Origin: Candidatus Woesearchaeota archaeon
GTDB taxonomy: Archaea > Nanobdellota > Nanobdellia > SCGC-AAA011-G17 > GW2011-AR18
Assembly (NCBI GenBank): GCA_018302765.1
Contig: JAGVZG010000024.1
Location: forward strand, 1 to 34,716
Direction: 5' to 3'
DNA: 34,716 nucleotides
The notes under the pieces are model-generated. The model ran no database searches, was not told where the DNA came from, and saw only the letters and a list, made by a program, of their open reading frames with translations. This document shows, piece after piece, positions 6,408 through 14,645 of the stretch (its first letter is position 1; every line of letters begins with the position of its first letter). The translations under genes were made by a program, and so were the position numbers.

Positions 6408-7826
6408 TTATGATTTGATATTTCTATTATACCAAACATCAACTTCAGTATTATTAAATGCTTTAAAAAATAAAGCAGGGCTGTACTTAAGCAAAAACAT
6501 AAAGCCCTTGTCTTCATTGTTAAATACTTCCTTCTTAAGTCTATTATCTATAAAAATATAACCAACATCATGTTTGTTAAGCAAAGAAACTGTAAGATTT
6601 ATATCTATGTTATTAAACAAAAAATCAATATCCTTTTTTCTGACAATTGGTTCTGGAGCATACAAAAAGTTTTCATCCAGCAATGTTTTTTTGCCAATGT
6701 AATTTATATAATTTCCAAAACGGTAGTCTGCTAGAACAGTTCCTTCAGAATTTTTATCTTCTAAAAATCTTATACCCTCAAAAAAACTAGGCGTTGGCTC
6801 AAAACTGGAAACTTGGTTATAAAAAACTAATAAAGAAAATAAAAGTCCGCAAAAAATAACAAGCAGTGTTAAAAACTTAAATGACCTCTCCTTCCACTCT
6901 CCAAAAATAAAAGGCATCAATCCAAAGGCAGCAAAAAAAGCGATAATAAAAGACAAATAAGACAGTAAGAAATTAAAATAGTAACTCAAAAACAATAACA
7001 AAAATATAAACAAATAAACAAATAAAAACCTGAGTTTAATATTATAGTATTTATATATGCCTATAAAAGCGAGAAATAACATAAAAAAGCCAAACCCATA
7101 CTTCCCTCCGAATCCAAAAACTACAAAAGAAATTAAACCTGAAAAACTAAACTTGGTAAAACCTAAAACAGATTGAGACAAACCCAAAGTAAATATGCTA
7201 TAAAATTGAATCAAAAATACAAAAATAAAACCAATAAAAATAATATAAAAATCATCAAATTTTTCTTTCTTTAGGCAATAACAGAAAAATAAAAATAATA
7301 CAACCAAGAGCGACAAAATTGAAAAGAAGCCTGTAAAAAAGAAAGATATAAAACCAAATAACTTTCTATCTATGGCAAACATATAAAATCCAAGCAATAT
7401 AAAAAAAATAGATGCAGAATATTTAGTAGAAGTAGAAAACAAATATAAAAATGCAGGAGAAATAATCAAAAGAAAAGAAGAAACAAACTTTATCTCTGGC
7501 TTGATCTTACTAACTAAAAGATAAAACACAATAAAAGAAAGCAGTCCAAAAATAAAAGGCAGGAATCTGGACAGAAAAACAGGATTAATGCTTAATAAAA
7601 TATACCAAGCTTTTTCTTCAATAAACGGCTTGCCTCCATAACTTAAACTATCATAACTAATGGAGCTACTACTGCTAAATTCATTGGCAAACCTTAAGCT
7701 CTTGTAGCTGTCAGAACCTATAAGCAATCCATCGCTGAATTTTTCTCTTATTATTATTAGTGAAAGTAAAGAAATAATGCAAAGTAAAAATAAAAAATAA
7801 AAATAGATCTTAGCACTTAAAGACAT
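6408..7826 (-). CDS. Polytopic GT-C-fold membrane protein (PMT/STT3-like), paralog of the upstream gene
   Basis: DSYKSLR and YDSLSYGGK in the first loop; about 12 hydrophobic segments; soluble tail TVLADYRFG...LLNKHDVGYIFI. Confidence 0.6.
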   Translation of the reverse strand: MSLSAKIYFYFLFLLCIISLLSLIIIREKFSDGLLIGSDSYKSLRFANEFSSSSSISYDSLSYGGKPFIEEKAWYILLSINPVFLSRFLPFIFGLLSFIVFYLLVSKIKPEIKFVSSFLLIISPAFLYLFSTSTKYSASIFFILLGFYMFAIDRKLFGFISFFFTGFFSILSLLVVLFLFFCYCLKKEKFDDFYIIFIGFIFVFLIQFYSIFTLGLSQSVLGFTKFSFSGLISFVVFGFGGKYGFGFFMLFLAFIGIYKYYNIKLRFLFVYLFIFLLLFLSYYFNFLLSYLSFIIAFFAAFGLMPFIFGEWKERSFKFLTLLVIFCGLLFSLLVFYNQVSSFEPTPSFFEGIRFLEDKNSEGTVLADYRFGNYINYIGKKTLLDENFLYAPEPIVRKKDIDFLFNNIDINLTVSLLNKHDVGYIFIDNRLKKEVFNNEDKGFMFLLKYSPALFFKAFNNTEVDVWYNRNIKS

Positions 7827-9324
7827 AATATCTGCCTCCCCTTAATGAATCAAAGCATTTGCTTCTTTTAGCATACTTTAAACTATCTATCTTGTAAGTA
7901 TCTTTTGTATCGTCAGAAAGATAAATAAGTTTTACATCATATTTTCTTAGAAGGCTAGTAGCTATTGCCTCACTGACAGTTGTGTATACCACCTCAACAT
8001 CTTTTGCCCTGCCAACAGGGTTAGGAGCTAAAACAAAATCACTATCAACAACATTTCTCCTGTTTCCTATAGCTGCTATAAGATTACCCTCACCAAGATT
8101 TCCTAAAACAACAGTATCAACGTCTTTTGTATTAATACTAATCCAACTAACTTCCTTAAATTTAGAATTTGCAATTTCATTGCTGTCTTTAGCAGCAGAC
8201 AGCGAAGGCATAAAAGAAGAAAAAGCAAAAGCAATTAATAGTAAAATAGTAAATAAATTCCTAATATGTTTAAATTTTAAATTAGCCAGATAACTATAAA
8301 CCTTACTAAGAGAAACAGATGAAAAAATAGAAAGAGCCAAGCCTAAAAACATTAAGCCAAGAGAAATTGTTAAGAATCTAAATACAATTAACAGCAATAT
8401 AGAAATAGAAAAAGCAACAAACATAAAATCAATTTTTCTTTTTTCTCTGAATACAGATAAATAAACACCAAAGCTTCCAAATATTAAAGGTAATAACCCA
8501 ATTCCAATCAACAAATCTATAGGAACCAATTTCCTAAAAGAGTCACTAAGAATATTAGAAGGTATATTTTGCCATAAAACGCTCATTCCATAATCCAAAA
8601 AAGCTTTCTTGTATATTATAAACTGCAATAATATCATTAACAAAATTGAAAAAACTACTGCCTCTTTTTTTAACTTTGTTGCTGTTAATGCGCCGCCAGT
8701 TAGTAATAAAAAATAAATAAAAATAACTACGACAAATACCAACGCAGAAGAATGCAGCAAGGGCAACATAAATGAAGAAATAATAAAAAACCATAAATAA
8801 AACTTGTTCTCAAGGTTCAATAATGAATAAAGCATTAGAAATAAAACAGGTATTACTAAAGAATACACAGAAATATTATTGAGTGTTTCAAAAAAAAGAA
8901 TAGGATAAAACGAAGACAATAAAGCAGAAAATAAAGCCGCGTAACTGTTACCGCTCATGTTCTTAGCTATAATATAAACAACAAAAACAGTACAAGATAT
9001 TAGAATTTCTGGAATTAATTTAAGCATAAACATAGAGCCAAAAGTTAATAATGCCATCAAAATATGAAACAACGGAGGATAAAGCACAAGCCTCCCACCA
9101 TAACTTAGATCATCATAAACCAATATACTTTTCTCATGAACAATACTTTCTATATGCCTCAGATGAAAGTAAGAATCATCTGTATTAAAATGACCTGTCT
9201 GAAAAGCAAAATACAGTCTAAAACTCAGAACAAATAAAAACAATAAGAATAGTAATATGTACTCATTCTTGATTTTGCGTTTGAGTACTGCTATCATTTG
9301 TATTAGTATTAACCTCGCTTCCAA
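7810..9324 (-). CDS. Polytopic GT-C-fold membrane protein (PMT/STT3-like)
   Basis: DDSYFHLR, YDDLSYGGR, YPPLFH; many TM helices; tail VLGNLGEG...LLRKYDVKLIYL. The true start may be the ATG at 9297. Confidence 0.65.
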   Translation of the reverse strand: MEARLILIQMIAVLKRKIKNEYILLFLLFLFVLSFRLYFAFQTGHFNTDDSYFHLRHIESIVHEKSILVYDDLSYGGRLVLYPPLFHILMALLTFGSMFMLKLIPEILISCTVFVVYIIAKNMSGNSYAALFSALLSSFYPILFFETLNNISVYSLVIPVLFLMLYSLLNLENKFYLWFFIISSFMLPLLHSSALVFVVVIFIYFLLLTGGALTATKLKKEAVVFSILLMILLQFIIYKKAFLDYGMSVLWQNIPSNILSDSFRKLVPIDLLIGIGLLPLIFGSFGVYLSVFREKRKIDFMFVAFSISILLLIVFRFLTISLGLMFLGLALSIFSSVSLSKVYSYLANLKFKHIRNLFTILLLIAFAFSSFMPSLSAAKDSNEIANSKFKEVSWISINTKDVDTVVLGNLGEGNLIAAIGNRRNVVDSDFVLAPNPVGRAKDVEVVYTTVSEAIATSLLRKYDVKLIYLSDDTKDTYKIDSLKYAKRSKCFDSLRGGRYYVFKC

Positions 9325-9811
9325 ATATGGTCTGAATTTTGCTTCTTAACTGATTCTCAACGACATCAAAATAATCATAAAATTTAGTAGTCAGCTTTAA
9401 TATTCTTGTTCTTCCCATTGGCTCACTTACTATAAACCCAAATTCCTTTAGTAATTTTACATGGTCATAAGCACCGTTTCCCCTTATTTTTATTATCTCG
9501 CTTTGAGAAACAGGATTTTTATAAGCAATAATTGCTAAAGTTTCCTGAGTTGGTCTGTCTAGTTCAGAATCTGTCAGCAAATTTTCAGTTAAATACAAGT
9601 AATTTCTCTTGATGTTTAATTTCCATCTCTCACCCTGTTCTACTATTTCTAAGGCTGAACTCCTGACATCATAATCTTTTTTTAACTCCTGAAGAACATC
9701 TTTTAAATATCCAATACTTCCCATGCCGCAGAGTTTGCCTAATTCTTCTAGCTCTATAAACCTACCTATAGTAAATAAAACTGTCTCTACTTTATTCTTG
9801 TCTTCTTGCAT
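9263..9811 (-). CDS. scpB: SMC-Scp complex subunit ScpB
   Basis: ETLAIIAYKNPVSQSEIIKIRG and GRTRILKLTTKFYDYF winged-helix motifs. Confidence 0.92.
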   Translation of the reverse strand: MQEDKNKVETVLFTIGRFIELEELGKLCGMGSIGYLKDVLQELKKDYDVRSSALEIVEQGERWKLNIKRNYLYLTENLLTDSELDRPTQETLAIIAYKNPVSQSEIIKIRGNGAYDHVKLLKEFGFIVSEPMGRTRILKLTTKFYDYFDVVENQLRSKIQTIFGSEVNTNTNDSSTQTQNQE

Positions 9812-9870: not shown

Positions 9871-12231
9871 TTAAAGATTAATAGCGTACCTCAATATAGC
9901 CCCAACACCACCCAAATCCCTTAATTGCACACCTTCCTTTGTTTCTACACTAACAATAAAAACCTTGGTTCCGACAGCATTAGCTTTTTCCTCAAACTCA
10001 TCTATTCTAGGAAAAGCTTCTGATATTAATATTCTATCAACAGCGCCATAGTCTAAGGCCTTTATAATATCATCAGCTCCATAAAGAACTTTATCAGAAT
10101 TTGTTGATAGCAAAGTAAAAAATTCATTTAAAATTTCCTTCTCCTTTATAATTTCAGCTTCAGCTAGAGTGTCATGTGATTTCTCTACTAACTCATGAAG
10201 GCCTTGCTCATCAGTATAAGTAATATCTTTTATCGCAACAATTTTCTTCTTTAGTTCATTGTGCAAATAATCTCCATTTGCAAAAGTTTCCTTAGTAGGC
10301 CCAGGCCCACCAATTAAAATACCTTTCAAATCTTTGCCTACAGCAGCAAATTCTATATTAGCAACTTCAGCAATTCTTTTGTAAAATTCATTTGCAGCTT
10401 CTTCTCTTAATCTTGCGTAACGTTGCTGACTATTGTGAACTAAAATACCATTAGCAAAGAAATTCTTACCTTGAACACTAATATCAATTAACTCATTTTC
10501 TCCTTCAATAACCTGAATCTTCTTTATCTTAATTGGTATTAAAGGATAATCTACAACTTTCTTTAATTCTTCATATAGTTCAACTTCAGTTTTTAGCCTA
10601 TTTAAGAAAACACGTCCAAATACTCCTTTACTCATTGCTCTCTTATTACATAAAAACATTGATGCGGATTTAAAATCTTGTTTTAAATAACCAAATTGCT
10701 CTATTAATCCTCTAATCCATTTTCCAGAGGGAGTAACCTGTCTAATATTGTTTCTCTCTGTTGTTAATTCTATTAACTTATTCAATTTAACAATTTTATC
10801 TTCAGCAACAAAACCAATATAATTTTTAAAATTAATCAAAGATTCTTTATCAGTAATTCTAATTACCCATTTGCCACGTCCAGCATAGCAAAAAGAACCT
10901 ATAATACTAAACCTTAACAATAATAACCTTACCTGATTAACTAAAGATTTATTCTTCATTGCAATTCCAACTTCATCTTTTACAGGATAAGCTTCAGCAT
11001 CATAAATACCCTTCAAAAAAGAAGCAACAACTTCATTCTTAGATAACATAATTTTTGTCGGAACTAAAGAAGTCTCACAGTATTTCTTTTCTGGGAATTG
11101 ATTTTTAACAAACCTAACAATATTTCTGCTATTAAGTCTTATTTCATAATAATGCTTATCATTCCTATATCTAAAAGAAGGTTTTTTACCAAATATATTA
11201 TAAGTTAAAGATTCATAGTATCTAGCAACATCTTCTCTTTGTTCAACAAGTTCAATCCTATTATCTTTATCATAACTTCCATCCCCAATCATATAACCGA
11301 CAAATCTTGCTAAATCTTCTGTAAGAATTACAGGCAATTTAGTGCTGTTATCGCCTTTATAATTTAATCTTTGTAGTTCTCCATTAAAATCTATTTTTTC
11401 AGGCATTAATAAAAAGTCTTCATCAATTTTTAATTCAGAAGCTGTTTTTTCACTTATTTTACCTTTATTCCATACAAAGAAAGTATGATTTGAAGAAGAA
11501 TCAATTTCTAGTCTTGGATATCCAGTAATAATTTTCAATATTTTTTTGTGTTTAGTTATAGAAGATCCTAAAACTTTTGAATTATTAATTAAAGTATTCT
11601 CAAAATTAAAACCACTGACTATATTATTTTTACTTACTTCTTTAATAGGAACAATTCTACCATCATCTAAATAAACTAAACTTTCAGGATCCAAACACCA
11701 GCCTCCAACCTTAACCTTTCCAGGAACTGAAGAAGTAAAATCTCTAACAACCTGAATACTTTTCCCTCTCAAAAATCCAATTGTAGATTCTCTGTTATCC
11801 ATAACAATCAAGCCATAAATTTCATTAATCTGCATCATTTCTTCTAAAGGACCTAAAACAAAAGTCTGATCGCATCTATACATTCTAACATTCACAGGAA
11901 CAGGAGGTTCAATACTCCAAATCTTAATATCTTGTTTTCCCTCTTGGCTAGCAATATTTCCAGCAAAAGCAGCTAATCCATTTTCAGGAGTCTTGCTATA
12001 CAGTCTCAAATGCCTTATCATTCTTTCCAGAGAATCTTGCACATTTAATCTTGTTGTCTTGTCTTTAATATTAGAAGCAGTCCCTTGTTCCTGAGCTAGA
12101 TGTTGTATAATTTTAATTATATCATAGCCAGCAGGAATATATACGCTGACAAATTCTGTATGTCGTCCTCTATATTGCTTTAACTCATTGACAAATTTCC
12201 TAAGTTTATACTGTTGTTTTGTATCTAGCAT
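9871..12231 (-). CDS. prf1: Archaeal peptide chain release factor aRF1 precursor with an intein (364 aa after splicing)
   Basis: GRHTEFVSVYIP, TASNIKD (NIKS-like), YRCDQTF, GKVKVGGW|SQQRY loop, GGPGPTK, LGGVGAILRY C-terminus. Confidence 0.95.
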   Translation of the reverse strand: MLDTKQQYKLRKFVNELKQYRGRHTEFVSVYIPAGYDIIKIIQHLAQEQGTASNIKDKTTRLNVQDSLERMIRHLRLYSKTPENGLAAFAGNIASQEGKQDIKIWSIEPPVPVNVRMYRCDQTFVLGPLEEMMQINEIYGLIVMDNRESTIGFLRGKSIQVVRDFTSSVPGKVKVGGWCLDPESLVYLDDGRIVPIKEVSKNNIVSGFNFENTLINNSKVLGSSITKHKKILKIITGYPRLEIDSSSNHTFFVWNKGKISEKTASELKIDEDFLLMPEKIDFNGELQRLNYKGDNSTKLPVILTEDLARFVGYMIGDGSYDKDNRIELVEQREDVARYYESLTYNIFGKKPSFRYRNDKHYYEIRLNSRNIVRFVKNQFPEKKYCETSLVPTKIMLSKNEVVASFLKGIYDAEAYPVKDEVGIAMKNKSLVNQVRLLLLRFSIIGSFCYAGRGKWVIRITDKESLINFKNYIGFVAEDKIVKLNKLIELTTERNNIRQVTPSGKWIRGLIEQFGYLKQDFKSASMFLCNKRAMSKGVFGRVFLNRLKTEVELYEELKKVVDYPLIPIKIKKIQVIEGENELIDISVQGKNFFANGILVHNSQQRYARLREEAANEFYKRIAEVANIEFAAVGKDLKGILIGGPGPTKETFANGDYLHNELKKKIVAIKDITYTDEQGLHELVEKSHDTLAEAEIIKEKEILNEFFTLLSTNSDKVLYGADDIIKALDYGAVDRILISEAFPRIDEFEEKANAVGTKVFIVSVETKEGVQLRDLGGVGAILRYAINL
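10432..11697 (-). mobile_element. 422-aa intein with a LAGLIDADG homing endonuclease in aRF1
   Basis: Block A CLDPESLVYLDDG (Cys at 11695-11697); block B SSNH; LAGLIDADG motifs LARFVGYMIGDG and FLKGIYDAEA; blocks F/G DISVQGKNFFANGILVHN; +1 Ser. Confidence 0.97.
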
Positions 12232-12254: not shown

Positions 12255-14645
12255 CTAAAACTCAACCTTAAGTTCTTTTCCATACTCTATTTTTTCTGCC
12301 TGAATTACTGCTTTAAGGTCATTTTCAACATTGTTTAAAATAAGATTATCAACTGTCAATACCTTAATTGGCTCTTTAAGAGACTTTAAATTTTTAGCTT
12401 TTTCCTGTCTGACAAAGCCTATAACTCTAACAAATTCATCTCCTACCTCAACAAATCTCTCATCTAACTTAAACTTCAAAACAGGCCAGTTACTAATATG
12501 AACACTTTCTTTATTCTCAATATTTATAAACATATTTTGATAAATCTCCTCTGTAACATAAGGCATGATTGGTGCAAACAATTTTATTATGTTCAAAAAG
12601 CAAATATGTAATGTGTACAAGGCACTCTCTTTGCCTTTAGTTAATTTTTCTGAATACAGCCTGTATTTAATAAACTCTAAATAATTATCACAAAAATCCT
12701 TCCAGAAAAATAATTCTATTGCACATTTAGCTTTGCTGTACTCGTAAGATTCAAAACTTTCAGTGCATACTTTAATAGTATTCTCTAATTTATGTAATAT
12801 CCATTGATCAATAATCTCAAGTTCTACTTTTTTTAATTTATAATTACCAAAATGAGATTTGCAAAACTTGTAGGCATTCCAAAGTTTATTTATTGTTCTT
12901 TGCCCAGTTAATAAATCCTTCTCCAAATACCTTAGATCATCTCCCAATTTAGAACCTGCTGCCCAAAACCTAAGAGCGTCTGCAGAGAATTTATCTAAAA
13001 CTTGTGCAGGTTCAATTACATTGCCCTTGGATTTATGCATTGCCTCGCCCTTAGGATCTAAAACATGACCAGAAATAACAATATTTTTCCAAGGCACTTC
13101 ATCATTGTGATAAATACCTTTAACTACTGTATAAAAAGCCCATGTCCTAATTATATCATGAGCCTGAGGCCTTAAACTGCAAGGATATAACTTCTTAAAT
13201 TCTAAATCATAAACACCATCCTTTGCCCAATTCAAAATTATTTGTGGAGTAACACTGGAAGTTGCCCATGTATCCATAACGTCATTTTCTCCTTCAAAGC
13301 TGCTAGAACTGCATTTGCATTTTTTCTTAGGCTTATCAACTAAAGGATCAACAGGTAAATTATTTTCTTCAGCAACAATAACACTTCCGCATTTCTTACA
13401 ATTCCAAACTGGAAAAGAAATTCCAAAATGCCTCTGCCTGCTTATGCACCAATCCCATTGCAGTCCTTCAATCCAATGTTCATATCTTAACTTCATAAAC
13501 TCTGGATGCCATTTTATTTTTCTGCCTGCATCCACAAACTTTTTTTTATTGTCTAAAACTTTAATGAACCACTGTTTTGTGCTTAGAAATTCTACCTCAA
13601 TTCCGCATCTCTCATGAACATTAACTATGTGTTTTATGGGTTTCTTAGAAACTAATAAATTCTCTTTTTCTAAGTCATTTAATATTTCCTTTCTAGCTTC
13701 CTTTATGTTCAAGCCTTCATACTTGCCAGCAAGCCCATTTAATTTACCATCTCTAGTAAAAATCACTCTAGGCTCCAATTTTCTTTTCTTTATTGCTTCC
13801 ACATCGTACTTATCACCATAACTACAAATCATTAACATTCCAGTTCCTTTCTCAGGATTGGCAGACTCATCAGCAAATATAGGAACATTATAATTGAACA
13901 AAGGAACTATTGCTTTTTTCCCAACATACCTTTTGTATCTTTTGTCATCTGGGTGAACATAAACACAAACACAAGCTCCGAGTAATTCAGGCCTTGTAGT
14001 TGCTATAACTATCTTGCTATCATCTTCCAATTTAAAGTTAACATCATTAAAAGTAGAGTCTAGTTCTTTGTCCTCTAAATCTGCCTGCGCAATTGCAGTC
14101 TGACAATGAACACACCACATTGTCGGCGCTTCTCTTTGATAAACTAAATTTTTTTTAAATAAATCAATAAAAGATTTCTGAGAAGTTCTTCTGCAATGTT
14201 TATCTATAGTAGAATAAGCATTAGAAAAATCACAACTCATACCTATTACCTTCCAATCATTTATAAAATCATCTTTAATTTCCTTAATTGTTTTTTCGCA
14301 TAGCTTAACAAAATCCTGCCTGCTCATTTTAGTAGATTTAACATTCTTTAGTCTTTCAACTAATCTTTCTGTAGGCAAACCATTATCGTCTGTACCAAAT
14401 GGATAAAAAACACCTTCTCCTTTCATCCTGTGGTATCTGACAATAAAATCTTGCTGAGAATAACTAAAAGCATGTCCTATATGCATCTTGCCAGAAACGG
14501 TTGGAGGTGGAGTATCAACTACAAAGGGCTTAGATTTTGATTTAGCATTAAACTTATAGACTCCTTTAGATTCCCAAAACTTTCTCCATTTAGTTTCTAT
14601 AACTTTATAATTATAAACATCATTCGAGTTCATAAAAAAATACAA
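12255..14645 (-). CDS. valS: Valyl-tRNA synthetase (archaeal type)
   Basis: DTPPPTVSGKMHIGH, WDWCISRQR, DVMDTWATS, RPQAHDIIRTW; the KMSKS position reads AMHKS. The start may be the ATG at 14633. Confidence 0.97.
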   Translation of the reverse strand: MYFFMNSNDVYNYKVIETKWRKFWESKGVYKFNAKSKSKPFVVDTPPPTVSGKMHIGHAFSYSQQDFIVRYHRMKGEGVFYPFGTDDNGLPTERLVERLKNVKSTKMSRQDFVKLCEKTIKEIKDDFINDWKVIGMSCDFSNAYSTIDKHCRRTSQKSFIDLFKKNLVYQREAPTMWCVHCQTAIAQADLEDKELDSTFNDVNFKLEDDSKIVIATTRPELLGACVCVYVHPDDKRYKRYVGKKAIVPLFNYNVPIFADESANPEKGTGMLMICSYGDKYDVEAIKKRKLEPRVIFTRDGKLNGLAGKYEGLNIKEARKEILNDLEKENLLVSKKPIKHIVNVHERCGIEVEFLSTKQWFIKVLDNKKKFVDAGRKIKWHPEFMKLRYEHWIEGLQWDWCISRQRHFGISFPVWNCKKCGSVIVAEENNLPVDPLVDKPKKKCKCSSSSFEGENDVMDTWATSSVTPQIILNWAKDGVYDLEFKKLYPCSLRPQAHDIIRTWAFYTVVKGIYHNDEVPWKNIVISGHVLDPKGEAMHKSKGNVIEPAQVLDKFSADALRFWAAGSKLGDDLRYLEKDLLTGQRTINKLWNAYKFCKSHFGNYKLKKVELEIIDQWILHKLENTIKVCTESFESYEYSKAKCAIELFFWKDFCDNYLEFIKYRLYSEKLTKGKESALYTLHICFLNIIKLFAPIMPYVTEEIYQNMFINIENKESVHISNWPVLKFKLDERFVEVGDEFVRVIGFVRQEKAKNLKSLKEPIKVLTVDNLILNNVENDLKAVIQAEKIEYGKELKVEF

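Follow-up and report, generated by a model that had tools for sequence, protein, structure and literature searches.

How does a cell terminate translation when the catalytic loop of its release factor is interrupted by another protein? This question is raised by a gene in a 34,716-nucleotide stretch of DNA, hereafter the window (contig JAGVZG010000024.1 of assembly GCA_018302765.1), from a groundwater Woesearchaeota (DPANN) archaeon with a small genome. The interrupted gene is that of its release factor, aRF1. The assembly of this genome, which we call G000, totals 1.02 Mb in 28 contigs, and 100% of the marker genes were found in it. We conclude with high confidence that the interruption is a class-1 intein with a LAGLIDADG endonuclease, lodged in the catalytic loop of the sole aRF1 of the cell, and that it comes from a large DPANN family specific for this site, persisting by a homing cycle.

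The region 10432-11697 of the reverse strand translates into 422 residues that begin with Cys, the first residue expected of a class-1 intein (codon at 11695-11697), end with His-Asn, contain no stop, and are in frame with the aRF1 open reading frame (ORF). They are flanked by ...PGKVKVGGW upstream and SQQRYARLREE... downstream. Cys1, the terminal His-Asn, and the Ser at +1 are kept in all 116 of the 116 parsed homologues, and S68 and H71 of block B are both at least 85% conserved in the intein family. The splicing domain matches Pfam Intein_splicing (PF14890) with 55.6 bits (cut-off 35.8), and the NCBIfam matches of the intein part are to intein-bearing models of IF-2, DnaB, RNA polymerase A'', V-ATPase A, and RtcB. 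The exteins are those of aRF1: the precursor matches the Pfam domains eRF1_1, eRF1_2, and eRF1_3, each above its cut-off, and the NCBIfam model aRF1_eRF1 (TIGR03676) with 409.9 bits (cut-off 234.7). The motifs of stop-codon recognition are in place (NIKD at 54-57, which is NIKS-like, and YRCDQTF at 118-124, of the form YxCxxxF), and N54, Y118, C120, and F124 are invariant in the homologue alignment (A1). A sequence-only reading of the window had described a full 422-residue intein with Cys1, an SxxH block B, a His-Asn end, and a +1 Ser, inserted between GGW and SQQRY. The translation, the hidden Markov models, and the predicted fold confirm this description, while the flanks and the TIGR03676 match confirm the insertion in the aRF1 catalytic loop. 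This is a standard class-1 intein, canonical and probably functional in splicing.

The same reading had noted two LAGLIDADG motifs with their acidic residues, and these are indeed present: the helix of each motif ends in an acidic residue (D139 and E235), as expected of two-motif enzymes, and the region matches Pfam LAGLIDADG_3 (PF14528) with 65.2 bits (cut-off 22.5). We modelled the precursor with AlphaFold2 from 50 homologues, with a mean predicted confidence (pLDDT) of 88.4 overall and about 90-97 across the intein. In the model, the intein has a HINT fold and a pseudo-dimeric endonuclease made of two halves, with helices (H) and strands (E) in the order H305-317/E/E/H333-347/E/E/H369-378 and H399-413/E/E/H428-441/E/E/H462-471. 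The top match of the model in Foldseek is the TliVMA intein-endonuclease 7qss (E 8e-26, template modelling [TM] score 0.76), followed in this order by aRF1 4af1, PI-PfuI 1dq3 (TM 0.64), PI-TkoII 2cw7, and PI-SceI. The exteins match aRF1 4af1 and 3agk. The coordinates of these features are given below.

Table. Features of the interrupted aRF1 gene in the window (aa, amino acids)
Feature	Coordinates	Strand	Description
aRF1 precursor ORF	9871..12231	(-)	786 aa + stop; single aRF1 gene of the genome
N-extein, residues 1-178	11698..12231	(-)	aRF1 domain 1 and first half of domain 2, ends GGW; TIGR03676 positions 1-172
Trp178 codon TGG (residue -1)	11698..11700	(-)	place of the catalytic Gln of GGQ, TIGR03676 position 173
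Intein, class 1, 422 aa	10432..11697	(-)	Cys1 to His421-Asn422
Intein block B, S68-S-N-H71	11485..11496	(-)	Ser variant of TxxH
LAGLIDADG homing-endonuclease domain	10543..11352	(-)	intein residues ~116-385; two alpha-beta-beta-alpha-beta-beta-alpha halves in the model
LAGLIDADG motif 1, ARFVGYMIGDG	11278..11310	(-)	intein residues 130-140; acidic D139 kept
LAGLIDADG motif 2, FLKGIYDAEAY	10987..11019	(-)	intein residues 227-237; acidic E235 kept; F232Y and G236A against consensus FDAEGY
His421-Asn422	10432..10437	(-)	C-terminal splice residues
Ser+1 (AGT) and Gln+2 (CAG)	10426..10431	(-)	transesterification nucleophile; Gln of the GGxSQ pattern
C-extein, residues 601-786	9874..10431	(-)	remaining aRF1 domain 2, plus domain 3

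Several characterised inteins share this architecture. The Thermococcales VMA inteins (TliVMA 7qss and PhoVMA 7qst), PI-PfuI (1dq3), PI-TkoII (2cw7), and PI-SceI (1vde) likewise combine a class-1 HINT domain with a two-motif LAGLIDADG_3 endonuclease. Of all solved structures, this VMA/PI-Pfu group is the closest both in sequence (E 2.5e-9) and in fold, and its members, like the aRF1 intein, are inserted at the catalytic motif of an essential protein. The group differs in its sites, which are an ATPase P-loop or a ribonucleotide reductase (RNR) instead of the aRF1 GGQ loop; identity is about 20%, and the aRF1 intein has Ser at +1 and Trp at -1. There is also a precedent for a translation factor as host: the inteins of aIF2/eIF5B in Methanocaldococcus and Pyrococcus (NCBIfam PRK14845), whose intein part matches that of the window (E 6e-17 and 1e-16). 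The match is confined to the intein, and the host in that case is an initiation GTPase, whereas here it is a termination factor. The closest relatives are the DPANN inteins inserted after the GGQ of aRF1 and before its Ser (e.g., in archaeon GW2011_AR20), which share the insertion point, Cys1, His-Asn, Ser+1, block B, and a C-terminal NF(I/F)ANG..VHN. The copy in the window represents the class of about 420 residues of this family. Unlike most members, it follows GGW and not GGQ; and unlike most full-length members, which have 502-510 residues and an XRE-type helix-turn-helix, it lacks the latter domain.

What does the cell have besides this gene to terminate translation? Exactly one aRF1 was found in G000, and it is the intein-split gene of the window. 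The genome has no match to the bacterial RF-1 domain (PF00472) and no Pelota/Dom34, the single match to the latter being the C-terminal half of aRF1 itself. The idea of a second release factor was rejected on the lack, in this assembly, of PF00472, of Pelota, and of another aRF1. All three stop codons are used at the ends of long ORFs (TAA 409, TGA 109, TAG 73), and none of the tRNAs that ARAGORN detected in G000 is a suppressor. The tip of the M-domain loop of aRF1 enters the peptidyl-transferase centre. With a domain of 422 residues in this loop, the unspliced sole release factor should be inactive, so that each termination event would depend on splicing. As judged from the canonical residues, splicing would start with an N-S acyl shift at Trp178-Cys1 and continue by transesterification onto the Ser+1 hydroxyl. 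Cyclisation of Asn422, aided by His421, would then release the intein, and an O-N shift would ligate ...GGW to SQQRY..., restoring the loop tip. Because this marker-complete genome has one aRF1, no RF-1 domain, and no Pelota, we infer, on good grounds, that termination as a whole very probably requires splicing of the intein, as the sequence-only reading had proposed. Within the wider superfamily, aRF1 is the only aeRF1 member in G000, and several relatives do have Pelota/Dom34, recognised by an additional TIGR03676 match of lower score in an ORF of about 350-380 residues.

Such dependence raises the possibility that splicing is gated by redox state, temperature, or contact with a host, and that it regulates the supply of release factor. 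The circumstantial arguments for this conditional switch are that the aRF1 is the only one in the genome, that the insertion lies in its catalytic loop, and that the site has been retained across several DPANN phyla, even by mini inteins. A Cys that could serve as a redox trap was sought and rejected: conservation of Cys across the intein family is limited to Cys1, and the +1 residue is Ser, so that there is no evident disulfide trap. Furthermore, the lethality of imprecise excision fully explains retention, and five other inteins in G000 sit in ordinary hosts, e.g., GyrB and AAA ATPases. We therefore regard the switch, which the sequence-only reading had put forward as possible and for which we found no support, as improbable.

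How common is the insertion, and how does it persist? We searched 40 Woesearchaeales relatives, where 35 genomes (G000 counted in) have an aRF1 match, and the TIGR03676 match is split at model position 172-174 in 14 of the 35. The split ORFs of the relatives have either about 500 residues (mini intein) or 660-880 residues (full intein), and the same picture of mini and full inteins holds in 54 further species representatives. Inserts of 127-578 residues at exactly this site are present in about 85 of the 150 best 50%-identity cluster representatives drawn from a library of 1.8 billion proteins, and a word-indexed search of public data found aRF1 proteins with an intein in at least 582 clusters at 90% identity. 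One member of these clusters is from archaeon GW2011_AR20, and the site is also occupied in Aenigmatarchaeota and Micrarchaeota. The clusters carry the JGI label 'peptide subunit release factor 1 (eRF1)/intein/homing endonuclease', and NCBI labels that include 'LAGLIDADG family homing endonuclease' and 'helix-turn-helix domain-containing protein'. A full-text literature search found no paper on aRF1 inteins. Hence, the family is widespread and machine-annotated, and apparently undescribed. Translation termination factors are uncommon intein hosts in the classical catalogues, and to that extent the sequence-only reading was right on this point; it does not extend to public DPANN data, given the number of clusters. 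Nor is the site rare or uncatalogued: it is occupied widely in DPANN and already labelled by JGI, an outcome which that reading had itself said would lower the novelty.

Two further observations concern inteins of aRF1. In the inteins of 502-510 residues (L037, L080, and most cluster hits; GGQ lineages), the extra XRE-type helix-turn-helix (PF01381) follows the N-terminal splicing region and precedes the endonuclease. Two metagenomic proteins have a second intein site in their aRF1 (P0056, 1187 residues, and P0076, 1452 residues), both of which also carry an intein at the GGQ site. The second-site intein directly precedes the Cys of the YxCxxxF motif of stop-codon recognition (..YLYM/C...HN/CDDHY.., with slashes at the junctions).

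All inteins at the aRF1 site are homologous, and a tree on the columns of the splicing domain separates them into two deep lineages, one endonuclease-bearing and the other mini (100/98 support). The seven species of the GGW extein clade have mixed states. The copy in the window (422 residues) and that of L035 (421 residues) are full inteins; L033, the sister species, has an intein of 359 residues with a deletion of 63 residues between the LAGLIDADG motifs; L030 and L027 have mini inteins (144 and 142 residues); and L005 and L011 are empty alleles, of the intein-free kind that the sequence-only reading had proposed to look for in relatives. The nearest neighbours of the window in the extein tree are thus one decayed copy and one mini intein of the other lineage. 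The approximately unbiased (AU) test rejects the grouping of mini holders as an extein clade (p 0.0096) and likewise that of full holders (p 0.018). Compared with L033, the synonymous divergence (dS) of the intein is about 0.46, against 0.88-1.4 in the exteins, and identity at third codon positions is high between about codons 81 and 520 and low at both ends of the gene. Co-conversion in the course of homing would be expected to produce such a pattern. In the endonuclease, 71 of the 73 family-conserved positions are kept (columns at least 85% conserved among 45 full-length inteins of the aRF1-site family), and the exceptions, F232Y and G236A, are both in motif 2.

Against current mobility stand several of these data. 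G236A replaces a Gly that is conserved at 96%, and the endonuclease of the closest relative is already deleted. The groups of the AU tests were chosen after the tree had been seen, and ancestral polymorphism could produce the same incongruence between intein and exteins. The contrast in dS concerns one sequence pair, and the last 37 codons of the intein, in the C-terminal splice region, do not have reduced dS. Splicing of a precursor that has Trp at -1, and the cutting of DNA by the endonuclease, are predictions.

Another explanation is that the intein is a fixed passenger: its endonuclease would be inactive or without a target, it would be inherited only vertically, and it would be kept since imprecise loss from an essential loop is impossible. 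The substitution at the conserved Gly of motif 2 and the deletion in the sister species fit this account, as does the persistence of endonuclease-less mini inteins across many lineages. Every intein-bearing allele of the GGW clade encodes Ser+1 by AGY and both empty ones (L005 and L011) encode it by TCY, so that the latter may be poor targets of the endonuclease; this split could reflect target immunity or a changed homing site. A passenger would not be expected to keep nearly all conserved endonuclease positions, with both acidic residues among them, nor a ratio of nonsynonymous to synonymous substitution rates (dN/dS) of about 0.2 in the endonuclease region. It also agrees poorly with the incongruence of intein lineages with exteins, and with a synonymous divergence below that of the distal exteins. 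We consider the passenger unlikely, though a serious contender. The idea of the sequence-only reading that the element may still be mobile gains indirect support from the conserved positions, the incongruence, and the low dS, and loses from G236A and the decayed copy of L033; the chance that the endonuclease of the window is active seems to us about even or a little better. Together, the evidence fits an ongoing homing cycle, in which the copy of the window looks like a young, intact stage. The family would persist by invasion, decay of the endonuclease, and occasional precise loss or replacement, and the lethal effect of any imprecise loss here would hold the intein in place.

The residue preceding the intein poses a second question. 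As in canonical aRF1/eRF1 (TIGR03676; 4af1, 3agk, and 1dt9), the protein has the same three domains, NIK(S/D), YxCxxxF, the GG of the loop tip, and the R(F/Y)xRL helix; unlike them, it has Trp in place of the catalytic Gln, and a Gln two residues further on. The TIGR03676 match of the N-extein stops at position 172 (GG) and resumes at 174 (Ser), and position 173 is filled by TGG. The loop therefore reads GGW where the catalytic motif is GGQ, followed by SQ, with the Gln (Gln+2, 10426-10428, reverse strand) two residues after Trp178. No alternative boundaries of the intein rebuild a GGQ, since the spacing of GG-x-S-x-x-R-(F/Y)-x-R-L requires W to occupy the position of the Gln. A sequencing error or an altered code was also rejected: TGG is two changes away from CAR, a tRNA-Trp(CCA) is present in G000, and relatives share W, F, and Y at this position.

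The missing Gln might suggest that the GGW gene is a pseudogene or a product of assembly or sequencing error, and that termination is carried out by something else. This explanation is already close to refutation, and we give it almost no credence. The ORF is intact, and the dN/dS of the exteins against the sister species (L033) is 0.06-0.07, indicating strong purifying selection. At least two changes would be needed to turn CAA or CAG into TGG, GGW is common to the seven species of its clade, intein-bearing and intein-free alike, and no other release factor was found in G000.

Intein-free relatives have GGW (L005 and L011), GGF (L008, L010, L012, L013, and L016), or GGY (L049), and on this sequence comparison Trp at -1 belongs to the host lineage and does not stem from the intein. 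In an extein tree computed without the column of residue -1, GGW forms one clade (support 99), which has a GGF clade as its sister group (support 96 for both together). More GGF and GGY sequences are scattered among the GGQ ones in this tree, so that the change arose at least three times. GGM and one GGS are found among the global representatives. The change is accompanied by others in the loop. In a set of 310 non-redundant sequences, which are phylogenetically non-independent, Gln is present at +2 (GGxSQ) in 43 of the 44 W, F, M, or Y forms against 50 of the 264 GGQ forms, and Tyr at +5 in 41 of the 46 non-Gln forms against 59 of the 264. Similarly, S-Q comes next in all 31 W or F forms among 114 close homologues of an intein-free GGW factor. 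GGxSQ is the motif of aVLRF1 and acVLRF1, which are relatives of aRF1 (Burroughs and Aravind 2019, PMC6514570). With this, relocation of the catalytic Gln can be put forward as a concrete hypothesis.

A further trait concerns the methylation of the Gln. The archaeal Gln methyltransferase Mtq2 (TIGR00537) scores 110-148 bits in nearly all GGQ relatives, against at most 87 bits in each of the GGW or GGF genomes searched and 45.6 bits in G000 (cut-off 87); this association of weak or absent Mtq2 with GGW and GGF represents only two or three independent events. A candidate Mtq2 pseudogene in G000 (C27:107880-108329) was rejected: L088 (499-1098, reverse strand) encodes an intact methyltransferase of 199 residues with the motif NPPQ, and it is the source of the 45.6 bits (cut-off 87). 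The HemK/Mtq2 motif is NPPY. A full-text literature search found no paper on natural loss of the Gln of GGQ in aRF1. We lean towards the view that spliced GGWSQ is a working, and the only, release factor, that the Gln was replaced by W, F, Y, or M in several DPANN lineages, being either dispensable or relocated to +2, and that Mtq2 was lost.

Changes in the peptidyl-transferase centre of the ribosome were looked for as well. No change in this part of the 23S rRNA consistently tracks W or F among 2 W, 2 F, and 8 Q genomes; the 23S rRNA is not in the G000 assembly. The candidate U2504C was rejected: it occurs in G001, G004, G021, and G003, yet the GGQ genome G038 has it too, and the GGF genome G030 lacks it. 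The peptidyl-transferase region of the 23S rRNA (L089-L101) is in itself unusually variable among Woesearchaeales. Positions 2450-2454 (E. coli numbering) are AACAG, AACUG, or AAUUG across the relatives, CGAUGUCGG reads CGACGUCGG in some of them, and there are inserts inside domain V in G032 and G038.

The surroundings of the gene are those of a co-directional run. The upstream neighbour (12255-14645, reverse strand) resembles a valyl-tRNA synthetase, and downstream there are a ScpB-like protein (9263-9811, reverse strand) and then a large membrane protein (7810-9324, reverse strand), all three judged from their translations alone. Elsewhere in G000, five more ORFs bear inteins, on contigs C5 (two), C8, C10, and C23. 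As identified by their flanks, their hosts include GyrB, an AAA/MoxR-like ATPase, secretion-type ATPases, and a large RNR-like protein.

The intein itself is of a textbook kind. Its value lies in offering a natural case in which the entire translation termination of a cell would hang on protein splicing, and in revealing a large, apparently undescribed family of intein alleles whose target is the motif most conserved in the release factor of archaea and eukaryotes. The surprising part, beyond the intein, is the loss of the Gln in a sole and conserved release factor. If GGWSQ is indeed the working form, then the intein sits inside a re-wired catalytic loop. A sole aRF1 under purifying selection with GGW, GGF, GGY, or GGM constitutes a natural experiment on the role of the catalytic Gln and of its methylation.

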